This document shows positions 22,228 through 37,123 of a DNA stretch of 64,000 nt, piece by piece. Made by a program: the position numbers and the translations under genes. The number at the start of each line of letters is the position of its first letter. Positions within the stretch are counted from its first letter, which is position 1. The stretch spans positions 1,015 through 65,014 of the forward strand of contig JAJYWN010000011.1 of assembly GCA_021791495.1 (NCBI GenBank), read 5' to 3'. Origin of the DNA: Bacillota bacterium. GTDB lineage: Bacteria > Bacillota > Sulfobacillia > JAJYWN01. The notes beneath the pieces were generated by a model that saw only the letters and a list, made by a program, of their open reading frames with translations, ran no database searches and was not told the origin of the DNA.

Positions 22228-22339
22228 CTCCGGAAAATGATCGAGCCCCGGCCTGTACGGTCCGGGGCTTGCTTGCTCTGGCTGGAGCGGCCCGTTAGAA
22301 AGCCGCCCGCCGCACCCCCCTTTCCGACGAAGGTCAAGT

Positions 22340-22520
22340 GTGCTTCCCGAAACGGGCAGGTCTCCTGGCTTCCGTTCTTCCTCCCCGCGCCTTCCCGCCG
22401 GCTGGGCCGGCAGTGGCTAGAGCGGTTCGTCGCGGTTACAGTGGCGGGACCGCGCCGGCTTAGGACCGCGCTCTTCGCGCCAAACGGTCCTCACCGGACT
22501 TCCCTATTATCCCCGCCCCC
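22340..22520 (-). promoter_or_regulatory. cobalamin (B12) riboswitch upstream of btuFCD
   Basis: Minus strand reads AUAAUAGGGAAGUCCGGUGAGGACC ... GCCACUGUAA ... GCCACUGCC ... GGGAAGG ... AGCCAGGAGACCUGCCC. The last segment matches the B12 box (compare E. coli btuB AGCCCGAAGACCUGCC). Position is 5' of the binding-protein gene. Confidence 0.8.
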
Positions 22521-22588
22521 TTCACTAGGGGCGGGGCACCCGTTTCCTTAGAATAACGCTATTCGGTTTTCACTATCCAGTATAGCGG

Positions 22589-33280: not shown

Positions 33281-33829
33281 CTAGCCAAAAATCCATCCGC
33301 AAACAAGAATCGCCGCGATAAACCCGACCGCATCACCGATGAGCCCGACGGGCAACGCGTATCGCGGGTCCCGCACCCCTACGGACCCGAAGTACAAGGT
33401 GAGGACGAAGAAGGTGGTGTCGGAACTCCCCTGCACCACGGCGGCGAGCCGCGAAACGAAGGCGTCGGCTCCGTGAGTCTTCATGACTTCACCTACCAGA
33501 CCCAGGGTGGCAGATCCCGACAAAGGGCGGAGGAGGACGACGGGGATGACGTCGGCGGGGATGTGGAACAAGGTGGTGAAAGGCGAGATGGCGCGCGCCA
33601 GGAGGTCGAATAACCCGGAGGTGCGGAACATTCCGACGGCCATGAAGATGGCCAGGACAAAGGGGAAGATGCGCAGGGCGATGGCTAGGCCTTCCTCGGC
33701 GCCCTCGATGAAGGTTTCGTAGACTTTCACACCTTTCAGGTATCCGTACAAGGGAATGCCCGCCAGGATGACCGGGAGAAGCCATTGCGCCAATAGGTTG
33801 ATGACGGCCATCGCTTGCCCCTCCCTCAC
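33281..33829 (-). CDS. spmB: spore maturation protein B (nucleoside-recognition/Gate-domain membrane protein)
   Basis: 182 aa with 4-5 TM helices; same size and order as B. subtilis spmA-spmB. The alternative reading is a YjiG-like transporter half. Confidence 0.65.
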   Translation of the reverse strand: MREGQAMAVINLLAQWLLPVILAGIPLYGYLKGVKVYETFIEGAEEGLAIALRIFPFVLAIFMAVGMFRTSGLFDLLARAISPFTTLFHIPADVIPVVLLRPLSGSATLGLVGEVMKTHGADAFVSRLAAVVQGSSDTTFFVLTLYFGSVGVRDPRYALPVGLIGDAVGFIAAILVCGWIFG

Positions 33830-34416
33830 TTCCTCCGCCGGGCGTGCCGGCGGGCCATGGCACTATTGGCCATCAAGGTGGCGGCCGTGCCACAGAGGCT
33901 GGCGAAAACCGAAGGGCCCACAATGTCCATGGGATTGGCGGCACCCGAAGCCAGACGCAGGGCGATCAAGGAGGCCGGCACCAAGGTGACAGACTGCGTC
34001 ACCAAGGCCATGAAAGTGATCATCGACTTCGAGGCCACCGCCTTGTCCTCGGCCAGTTCAGACAGGCCGGCCATGGCCTTCAACCCGAAGGGGGTCGCGG
34101 CGTTGCCTAGACCGAGGAGGTTCGCGCTGACGTTCAGGACGATGGCCCCCAGCACCGGGTGATCGCGTGGTATCTCCGGGAAGAGCCGCGCCGTCAAAGG
34201 TGCCAGAGCGCGGGCGATGAGATGGACCAGGCCCGACTTCTCGGCGATCTTCATCAGCCCCATCCACAGGCAGAGCACGCCGGTGAGGCCCAACACCAGG
34301 TCCACGGCCGAGCGGCCCGAGGCCATGGCCGCGGCCGTCACTTCATTGACCTGGCCACGCGCGCCGCCGTAAATCACCGCCGACACGATGAGGAAAAGCC
34401 AAATCACGTTTAACAA
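33826..34416 (-). CDS. spmA: spore maturation protein A (nucleoside-recognition/Gate-domain membrane protein)
   Basis: 196 aa membrane protein (B. subtilis SpmA is 196 aa); overlaps spmB by 4 nt. Confidence 0.65.
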   Translation of the reverse strand: MLNVIWLFLIVSAVIYGGARGQVNEVTAAAMASGRSAVDLVLGLTGVLCLWMGLMKIAEKSGLVHLIARALAPLTARLFPEIPRDHPVLGAIVLNVSANLLGLGNAATPFGLKAMAGLSELAEDKAVASKSMITFMALVTQSVTLVPASLIALRLASGAANPMDIVGPSVFASLCGTAATLMANSAMARRHARRRK

Positions 34417-35143
34417 GGCGCTCGCCTCCGCGCCGTATGTCTATGAGGCCGACCGCGCCCTATAAACCCTTCCACAATATTCCTCGGCGCTCCGCTTTCC
34501 AGCCACCTATATTCAGCGGTGCGGTGGGGACAATACGTGTCGAGGTCCACAGCAGCCGAGCGCAGACTGGCGCCGGTTCCGCGAGGGATCGGCGTTAGTC
34601 GAGCAACGGTTGCTGCAGGCCGGACCGGTAAACCCTCTCCAAGGATCCGTTCGCCTTGTTTAAGGTATCCCTGGCGCACGGTCTCCTGGTCAGGGCCCGT
34701 GAACCGGTCTGCAGTAGCCAGAGCGCAGATCGTTATGGGTTCCCACCGGGTTTGCACTAGTCTGGAGTCGACTAGTGCAGGCTCCACAAGGATCCATGAC
34801 GGTCGAGCTAAGATAGCTACAGGTTCTGTAGTGGTTTGTACTGGCCGAGAGGTCAGTACAAGCTGCGAGAGACCGGTTGGATCTGTAGCTGTCGAGCAAA
34901 GGTTAGTGTAGGCGTCGCAGAGGTTATCGGCAGCCTAACGGTTGTCGTTAGCTTTCAGGATGTCTATATTAGCCGGAGCGAAGGTTGCTGTGGGCTTCAA
35001 TATTTCCTCCACCGTCTCCCTGGGGGCTGAGGTTCGGGACGTTTGTCTATTGACAACACCGGTTTGCTTGGACAAGGTATAGGTGACGGCCCTAACGGGG
35101 CTGCCGAGAAAAAAGGCCTTCGGCCACACAGGGAGGATCTGAA

Positions 35144-35365
35144 GTGGCGGATTCCAAGACGATGGACCTGAAAGTTACCGGCATGAGTTGCATGCACTGC
35201 CGCATGGCCGTGGAACGTGCTCTGAAAGGCGTTTCCGGCGTATCCACCGCCAGCGTGGACCTGGCGTCGGGAAGGGCCAAGGTGACCTACGACCCAGGGC
35301 AGGCAGGCTTGAAGGATTTTGAGAAGGCGGTTGAGGAAGCGGGCTATAGTGTCGCCCAAGCCTAG
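35144..35365 (+). CDS. copZ: copper chaperone CopZ (heavy-metal-associated domain)
   Basis: MDLKVTGMSCMHCRMAVERAL contains the GMSCxHC metal-binding motif; 73 aa. Confidence 0.88.
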   Translation: MADSKTMDLKVTGMSCMHCRMAVERALKGVSGVSTASVDLASGRAKVTYDPGQAGLKDFEKAVEEAGYSVAQA

Positions 35366-36895: not shown

Positions 36896-37123
36896 ATGAG
36901 GGACACACTTGACGTCCGCGAGAAGAGAATGCTTCAGATCCTGACCTACATCCAGCGCAATCCGGACTCAACGGGGGCGAAAGAGGTCTGCCGGGTCATC
37001 CTCGGAAGGGACCATGTGGATGAGGAGGCCATCAGGTCTTTGAGGATCCGGCTGCCCCACGCCGATGAAACCGCCGTCCGGACTTGCTACGATGTGGTCT
37101 GCTGGACAGAAGACGACGGCTGA
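36896..37123 (+). CDS. small hypothetical ORF (75 aa) in a locally low-GC stretch; uncertain
   Basis: ATG lies inside an inverted repeat (CTGAAGCAT...ATGCTTCAG). No obvious RBS; overlaps the 3' end of the convergent ligD-pol gene. Confidence 0.25.
   Translation: MRDTLDVREKRMLQILTYIQRNPDSTGAKEVCRVILGRDHVDEEAIRSLRIRLPHADETAVRTCYDVVCWTEDDG

Follow-up and report, generated by a model that had tools for sequence, protein, structure and literature searches.

A large, probably free-standing structured RNA beside spmA in uncultured Bacillota, with a forespore-type promoter signal

The 64,000-nt stretch of contig JAJYWN010000011.1 analysed here (Bacillota bacterium, assembly GCA_021791495.1; the window) contained a gap of 727 bp between spmA (33826-34416, - strand) and copZ (35144-35365, + strand), in agreement with the coordinates of the initial annotation. 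This gap (the island) probably harbors the gene for a large, uncatalogued structural RNA at 34542-34998 on the + strand, which would stand alone, be expressed in the forespore and represent a new class. The product of spmA matched Pfam Gate and copZ encoded a 73-amino acid (aa) HMA protein; spmB lay past spmA, and genes for a YheC/D ATP-grasp protein, LigD, a ligase and Ku lay past copZ. The identical contig was also found in the NCBI metagenome-assembled genome (MAG) GCA_027335225.1 and in one European Nucleotide Archive assembly.

The GC content was 64.5% in the window and 57.8% in the island (62.8% in 34417-34749 and 53.6% in 34750-35143). The dip seen by the initial annotation was thus present, but was smaller than the ~68% and ~50% that it gave would imply. 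It resulted from A-rich linkers, U-rich helices containing G·U pairs and AT-rich promoters, and not from a foreign origin. As had been noted before, the island had no credible open reading frame (ORF): those present had at most 130 aa and no Pfam match. A decayed or unrecognized protein-coding gene would agree with ORFs of 125-130 aa that overlap the region on both strands, but given that homologues were distinguished by the loss of an arm (78 nt) and by indels of lengths not divisible by three, that substitutions fell in base-paired couples and not in third codon positions, and that Pfam gave no matches, its probability is negligible. No tRNA or tmRNA was found in the window.

The + strand folded with a minimum free energy (MFE) of -369.1 kcal/mol, compared with -278.2 ± 6.5 kcal/mol in dinucleotide shuffles (z = -14.0), and the - strand reached a z of -4.7 only. 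The island had been described as packed with short hairpins; structure was indeed far above chance, but the hairpins were not scattered and belonged to a single 457-nt RNA, in which a hub of six helices was closed by helix A. There were nine uninterrupted helices of 14-16 bp (closing helix A, hairpin B, arm C, and the two-tier arms D/E, F/G and H/I, of ~31 bp apiece), and each long helix contained 3-5 G·U pairs. The parts of the RNA were as follows:

34542-34998, + strand: RNA core of 457 nt, from the 5' strand to the 3' strand of helix A; z = -14, exact span of the nhmmer and covariance model matches, 141 consensus pairs, 98% canonical
34542-34557, + strand: helix A, 5' strand; partner 34983-34998, 425 nt apart; 7 of 15 pairs covary
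34558-34564, + strand: linker L1, GAGCGCA; G34560-C34561 pair with G34978-C34979 of L6, invariant
34565-34600, + strand: arm B, a hairpin of 16 bp capped by GCGA, with covariation in 9 of 16 pairs
34601-34607, + strand: linker L2, GAGCAAC; G34603-C34604 pair with G34723-C34724 of L3, and columns 66:189 switch from G-C to C-G between clades
34608-34719, + strand: arm C, with a conserved 16-bp basal helix (34608-34623/34704-34719) and a variable, imperfect extension (34625-34701)
34720-34727, + strand: linker L3, AGAGCGCA; pairs with L2
34728-34804, + strand: arm D/E, with helix D (34728-34742/34790-34804), helix E (34748-34762/34770-34784) and a 7-nt loop
34805-34811, + strand: linker L4, GAGCUAA; G34807-C34808-U34809 pair with A34895-G34896-C34897 of L5, and columns 275:418 switch from U-A to C-G
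34812-34893, + strand: arm F/G, with helix F (34812-34826/34879-34893), an asymmetric internal loop, helix G (34831-34846/34851-34866) and a GAGA loop
34894-34900, + strand: linker L5, GAGCAAA; pairs with L4
34901-34974, + strand: arm H/I, with helix H (34901-34916/34959-34974), helix I (34920-34935/34940-34955) and a UAAC loop
34975-34982, + strand: linker L6, GGAGCGAA; pairs with L1
34983-34998, + strand: helix A, 3' strand, from fold and covariation

The six hub linkers of the window were all GAGCNNA(G), with GRGCNNA as the purine-rich form of the family, and paired two by two: L1 with L6 (invariant GC/GC), L2 with L3, and L4 with L5. The hub therefore consisted of three repeats of a unit made of a short helix, 3 nt, an arm and 2-3 nt, i.e. 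it was roughly three-fold. Across all helices and sequences the strands had the form 5'-GRYY...RGYC-3', and because strands start with GRYY and end with RGYC, helix ends were near-palindromic and G·U pairs occurred at fixed positions. Within the same RNAs, the covariance model of arm H/I also matched arms B, C and F/G, and the arms are therefore paralogues derived from internal duplication. Counts of the linker-plus-helix motif elsewhere in the window were at chance level. Eight of 15 pairs covaried in helix D and 10 of 15 in helix E, which were separated by a 5x5 internal loop (CCACC/CACAA). The extension of arm C was missing in locus L089 and in every low-GC member, and low-GC members had an additional small hairpin inside the internal loop of arm F/G. 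An ACCGGU palindrome in this internal loop was considered as a dimerization site and rejected, as it was not conserved in L061 or in the low-GC members; hub internal loops were likewise rejected as K-turns because of their sizes (by inspection only).

Two of the four inverted repeats quoted by the initial annotation were parts of this fold, as GCACTAGTC-N7-GACTAGTGC (34754-34778) was the core of helix E and GTACTG-N10-CAGTAC the core of helix G. The other two were local palindromes: CUACAG of CTACAG-GTT-CTGTAG paired instead with 34883-34888 in helix F, as supported by covariation, and in place of CTAAC-N7-GTTAG the apex of arm I paired CGGCAGCC with GGUUGUCG.

The consensus structure of the window contained 108 Watson-Crick, 32 G·U and 0 A·C pairs, and the homologues 22-40 G·U against 0-2 A·C pairs; the RNA is therefore read from the + strand. 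Neutral decay of palindromes would have produced G·U and A·C in equal numbers, so that the bias indicates selection on the + transcript, or at least on a single strand. With an alignment of 12 sequences and 527 columns (A3; MAFFT), RNAalifold predicted 142 pairs, 77 of them with compensatory double changes. In a separate count of 141 pairs, 98.0% of cells were canonical (28-43% with partners slid by 1-3 columns), 76 pairs had double-sided changes (10-26 with slid partners), and the covariation score was 0.545 (0.07-0.18 with slid partners). None of 500 column shuffles reached the observed values, and each long helix had 6-10 covarying pairs. Covariation support was on par with that of curated families.

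Homologues of the RNA were found at ~15 loci, in uncultured Bacillota of high GC content as well as in Desulfotomaculia-like genomes of low GC content, all of the carriers found being metagenome-assembled. By synteny, the RNA was located in L083-85, L089-91, L092, L103, L105 and L106. In L083-85, where SpmA was 88% and YheCD 62% identical, the 700-bp gap was retained and the RNA core was ~92% identical to that of the window; the RNA is far more conserved than the adjoining YheCD protein in the comparison with L083. In L089-91 (SpmA 63% identical), the RNA was kept without copZ and yheCD, and an ADH gene was convergent. A scan of genome contigs with SpmA gave relatives ~50% identical among the matches listed, L061 among them (GTDB MAG 'Bacillota bacterium DBS2-4.bin104'); its RNA, divergent from spmA, was detected by nhmmer among 80 spmA neighbourhoods (E = 3e-75). 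A DNA pattern made from four-way invariant positions retrieved L093-L100 from metagenomes (44-65% GC); all eight were true homologues by nhmmer (E = 1e-25 to 1e-109) and folded individually into the same hub-and-arms shape. The conserved core was bounded by helix A at both ends in all members.

In L099 the RNA lay next to ileS. The IleS protein encoded there shared ~75% identity with those of Desulfotruncus, Desulfallas and Desulfoscipio, and its homology placed L099 near Desulfotruncus and Desulfallas. Synteny with ileS led to L103 and L105 (full length) and to a mini-variant in L106 (L106:6085-6196, - strand; ~130 nt). The mini-variant had helix A and arm H/I only. Around it, a promoter-like site scoring 16.7 was retained, as were the trailing hairpin and a downstream gene for a small acid-soluble spore protein (SASP); the variant represents either a minimal core that is still functional or a product of deletion. 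Ordinary T-box leaders, unrelated to the RNA, occurred upstream of ileS (L099:1813-2030 and L103:3723-3942). In other Firmicutes and Bacteroidota, the covariance model of arm H/I found no further members among 80 spmA neighbourhoods, and the RNA is therefore not a general companion of spmA. A first scan of metagenomes with YheCD peptides returned nothing.

A remnant of mobile or repetitive DNA without RNA function, one of the possibilities raised by the initial annotation, could be a miniature inverted-repeat transposable element, palindromes resembling repetitive extragenic palindromes or bacterial interspersed mosaic elements, or a horizontally acquired island. The GC content below that of the surroundings and the likeness of the arms (direct repeats D1, D2 and D6; cross-matches of the arm model) would agree with it. 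However, the element was present in a single copy per locus, with none elsewhere in the window or in 100 other loci; its place beside spmA was syntenic and fixed in six high-GC lineages; no plasmid or viral contig matched; pairs other than Watson-Crick were all G·U on one strand; pairing was held by compensatory changes across a large evolutionary distance; and the long-range architecture was nested and closed by helix A. Such a remnant is very improbable.

The structured core was framed by the following signals:

34507-34512, + strand: -35-like CTATAT, best combined match to the forespore matrix, with a 13-nt spacer; conserved in L083 and L092
34526-34535, + strand: -10-like GGGGACAATA, pattern GGnnAnAnTA, score 11.3; ends 6 nt 5' of the RNA core
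34999-35048, + strand: candidate 3' end region; helix A is directly followed by AAUAUUU, and a hairpin resembling a weak terminator (35019-35038) precedes ACGUUUGUCU

The promoter matrix was derived from 43 experimentally mapped sigma-F and sigma-G promoters of C. difficile (Saujet et al., 2013; PMC3789822, Table S6), with -35 GWATAA, -10 GGnAAWAMTA and a 12-15-nt spacer. Of 127,940 positions in the window, only one scored better than the site CTATAT-N13-GGGGACAATA (34507-34535). This first-ranked site (7840, - strand) lay ~70 nt before a DUF1614-spoIIP operon, and the third (41935, - strand) ~97 nt before ytfJ, within the 3' end of a DUF2953/ytfI-like ORF; the matrix thus picked sporulation contexts in a high-GC organism, which supports its use here. 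The GGnnAnAnTA element was present in every member and ended 5-8 nt before the core (10-11 nt in the ileS-SASP clade), and the sites were in the top 0.002-0.08% of positions of their own locus, except in L103 (0.6%). Three low-GC members had GAATA-N14-GGnCATAATA, which resembles the spoIIR promoter of C. difficile. Promoter consensus strings of B. subtilis were compared by eye, and a sigma-E or sigma-K promoter was rejected because no CATA-type -10 element was seen. Low-GC members had canonical strong intrinsic terminators starting 5-10 nt after helix A, and L061 and L097 a U5 tract 3-6 nt after it. To judge from these sequence signals, transcription would start at ~34540-34542 from a forespore-type (sigma-F/sigma-G-like) promoter and would end shortly past helix A.

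A function at the DNA level, with single-stranded DNA hairpins serving replication, recombination or a retron-like element, has to be considered because the G·T wobble also forms in single-stranded DNA and strand bias alone does not separate it from RNA. It is highly unlikely nonetheless: the promoter-like site at a fixed distance and the intrinsic terminators framed exactly the structured core, purine-rich internal loops and loops of the GNRA type (GCGA, GAGA, GAAA) are characteristic of RNA, and no locus had an adjoining gene for a reverse transcriptase, integrase, relaxase or replication protein. A real structured RNA gene on the + strand, also among the possibilities first suggested for the island, is practically certain from the strand-specific G·U pairs, the 76 covarying pairs, the conservation above that of flanking proteins, and the promoter-like and terminator signals.

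The island had also been proposed to be a long leader of copZ. A cis-acting 5' leader (riboswitch, thermosensor or stabilizer) of copZ in the window, or of the SASP gene in the Desulfotomaculia-like clade, would be consistent with copZ following the RNA in the same orientation in the window and in L083, and with the SASP gene 60-70 nt on in L099, L103, L105 and L106, with no separate forespore-type promoter; moreover, the single-sequence MFE structure paired the copZ ribosome-binding site GGGAGG (35131-35136) with CCUUCC (34468-34473). However, the RNA also occurred without copZ, and the downstream gene varied by clade, with no consistent same-strand partner of related function. Downstream genes were convergent in L089 (ADH), L061 (SASP), L097 (LigD), L094 (a zinc-ribbon gene) and L096 (HlyIII). 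Strong terminators followed the RNA in low-GC members, the conserved core stopped at helix A, with a variable stretch to copZ that was partly deleted in L083, and the long perfect helices were unlike known ligand-binding aptamers. The RNA is not a regulator of copZ, and a leader of either gene is improbable.

SASP genes adjoined the RNA in two contexts:

L099:4953-5144, L103:6845-7024, L105:5850-6029 and L106:5830-6021, - strand: tandem SASP genes, short and atypical, with a conserved GW motif
L061:4950-5264, + strand: convergent SASP gene in an unrelated high-GC context, 105 bits, 90 nt from the RNA

The alpha/beta-type SASP gene, a canonical forespore gene, was the immediate 3' neighbour of the RNA on the same strand in L099/L093, L103, L105 and L106, at 60-70 nt from it; the tandem genes scored 25.7-32.7 bits with Pfam (cut-off 22). 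The spacer between RNA and SASP gene was occupied by a hairpin whose U-tract was poor. In L099, L103, L105 and L106 this spacer had no forespore-type promoter, so that co-transcription with the RNA is likely there. SASP genes number a handful per genome by our own estimate, and for this reason two independent adjacencies are unlikely to be due to chance. They fit forespore expression and give a hint of a functional link. There was no SASP gene within the window itself.

The search of Rfam suggested by the initial annotation left the island unmatched: with Rfam 15 (cmscan, 4227 families) at gathering scores, there was nothing for the RNA in the window or in 11 homologue loci, where T-box leaders outside the RNA were the only matches. 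At E ≤ 10, the island gave only a chance fragment of a snoRNA, and L103 only sub-threshold chance matches. The models compared covered OLE, ROOL, GOLLD, HEARO, raiA and 6S RNAs as well as riboswitches. Literature searches for a prior description, with subscription-only journals outside their coverage, returned only CsfG, Bvs196, raiA and OLE-type RNAs. The RNA very probably lies outside any catalogued family.

Closest in kind were OLE, ROOL and GOLLD RNAs, which are likewise large (~400-460 nt here), free-standing and heavily structured, with many covarying helices and multi-helix junctions. OLE is found in anaerobic and extremophilic Bacillota, and anaerobic Bacillota are carriers of the present RNA as well. 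However, the Rfam models of all three gave no match even at E ≤ 10. OLE has oapA, oapB, oapC and isoprenoid-pathway genes as neighbours, whereas the neighbours here (spmAB, copZ, yheCD, LigD/Ku, ileS, SASP and others) include none associated with OLE, and a prophage or tRNA neighbourhood was lacking. The present RNA was also unusually regular by comparison, with perfect 14-16-bp helices, near-palindromic ends, repeated linkers and paralogous arms. OLE, ROOL and GOLLD form homo-oligomeric RNA assemblies (PMC12286853), and by analogy self-assembly is a reasonable possibility for an RNA with a hub and arms.

Closest in predicted expression were CsfG and Bvs196/S357, independent RNA genes of the Bacillus forespore with predicted or shown sigma-F/sigma-G promoters, conserved among spore formers (PMC9147052). 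Bvs196 has 294 nt and a consensus MFE of -82 kcal/mol, and forespore small RNAs of Bacillus have been proposed to base-pair with mRNAs (PMC9147052). The present RNA is much larger than they are and of far greater predicted stability (457 nt and -369 kcal/mol). The raiA motif RNA (ModT) is a structured noncoding RNA of Bacillota whose loss affects sporulation (PMC10861870, PMC11706538); it has ~200 nt, is very widespread and folds differently, and its Rfam model was unmatched here. A repeated module is shared with protein sponges of the CsrB/RsmZ type and with 6S RNA, which mimics a nucleic acid, an analogy of mechanism only. With ~9 near-identical helix types, this analogy would suggest multivalent binding or mimicry of a double helix. 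GGA loop motifs and a 6S-like open-promoter bubble were missing, however, the Rfam models of these RNAs were unmatched, and the repeated unit here was a paired helix and not a single-stranded loop.

With a forespore-type promoter, the RNA would be made in the developing spore, and to judge from the promoter-like signals and gene context forespore expression is somewhat favored over expression elsewhere. Almost every nucleotide was locked in a helix, which makes a base-pairing regulator unlikely; a role as a ligand sensor is also unlikely. Because nearly all nucleotides were paired and one helix type was repeated ~9 times at a fixed length, the most plausible function would be that of a trans-acting structural RNA. 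For a protein with affinity for A-form helices it could be a multivalent scaffold or decoy; alternatively, it could be a self-assembling particle. Such a scaffold, decoy or assembly function is proposed tentatively and is doubtful. Alpha/beta-type SASPs cover the DNA of the spore and make it adopt an A-like helix. A spore-specific, multi-armed particle of A-form duplex might self-assemble like ROOL, GOLLD and OLE, or might act as a mimic of A-form DNA that binds these SASPs, buffers them or delivers them; this more specific proposal is unlikely as it stands, and a link of the RNA with SASPs through binding of an A-like duplex is speculative. If true, the proposal of such a particle would explain the nine near-identical 14-16-bp helices, the forespore-type promoter and the recurrent adjacency of SASP genes in two unrelated contexts.

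Several observations weigh against a free-standing forespore RNA of a new class. The promoter, the start site and the 3' end were all predicted in silico; the promoter matrix came from an AT-rich species and may favor AT-rich intergenic DNA, and promoter scores were modest in L061 (5.8) and L103 (6.2). The segment 34999-35048 was deleted in L083 and the terminator of the window was weak and not conserved, and read-through into copZ is possible in the window. Alignment A3 represented ~9-10 independent lineages in two clades, so that many of its covariation cells were inherited and were not independent events. The pattern by which eight members were retrieved fixed the apex of arm I and L6, and the invariance at both is for this reason partly ascertainment; L103 (AGCGCAGGU) and L105 (altered apex), found independently, differed at the pattern-fixed sites, which can thus vary, and the RNA family is under-sampled. 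Among unpaired columns, no convincing tertiary pairs were found. The ileS loci of Desulfotruncus alcoholivorax (L101) and Desulfofarcimen acetoxidans (L104) lacked the RNA. Finally, the RNA may have been described before even though Rfam and the searchable literature lack it.

Large, intricately folded bacterial RNAs are rare, and RNase P, tmRNA, 6S, OLE, ROOL, GOLLD and raiA each opened new biology. The present RNA is so regular that it looks almost designed: its hub is pseudo-three-fold, its paralogous arms have a fixed length, and its G·U pairs recur at the same positions. Sequence signals connect it with the developing spore, in which biology at the RNA level is poorly known, and the repeated link with SASP genes provides a concrete, testable hypothesis. 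It would also offer structural studies a well-defined target and could mark a group of spore formers among uncultured Bacillota and Desulfotomaculia-like bacteria.

The remainder of the island outside the RNA corresponded to the spmA 5' region and the RNA promoter (34417-34541), and to the copZ upstream region (~35000-35143), in which two features were delimited:

34417-34506, - strand: spmA translation-initiation and upstream region, outside the RNA, with Shine-Dalgarno GGAGG; adjoins the spmA start, conserved with L083 and L092
35050-35143, + strand: copZ upstream region, outside the RNA, with conserved TTGACAA-N11-TGGACAAGGTATA and GGGAGG ribosome-binding site

We infer from its position that 34417-34506 is the spmA 5' region. 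A block of 20 nt, CCTTCCACAATATTCCTCGG (34468-34487), between the spmA start and the RNA promoter, was invariant in the window, L083 and L092 and was not conserved in L089 or L061; it may be the spmA promoter or an operator. The region 35050-35143 was kept in the copZ-carrying L083 and missing from homologues without copZ. The promoter-like element described there by the initial annotation, TTGACA (35050-35055) with TATAGG (35078-35083), was rejected as a standard sigma-70 or MerR-type promoter, as its 22-nt spacing is too long for sigma-70, and the promoter scan made no call. Upstream of copZ in both the window (35050-35083) and L083, TTGACAA-N11-TGGACAAGGTATAGG was a direct repeat and not a dyad, and no dyad of a CsoR-, CopY- or CueR-type operator was found upstream of copZ. 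A small conserved hairpin, GGCC-UUC-GGCC (35108-35130), lay just 5' of the ribosome-binding site of copZ; its - strand reading, with U6 behind it, resembles a weak terminator, and the T-tract was not conserved in L083.

Elsewhere in the window, a cobalamin riboswitch (22338-22558, - strand; RF00174, 103.9 bits) was the sole Rfam match. A small conserved ORF of 63-75 aa with no Pfam family was present between yheCD and LigD (window 36896-37123, + strand; L083:6057-6248), and was called as a gene in both relatives.

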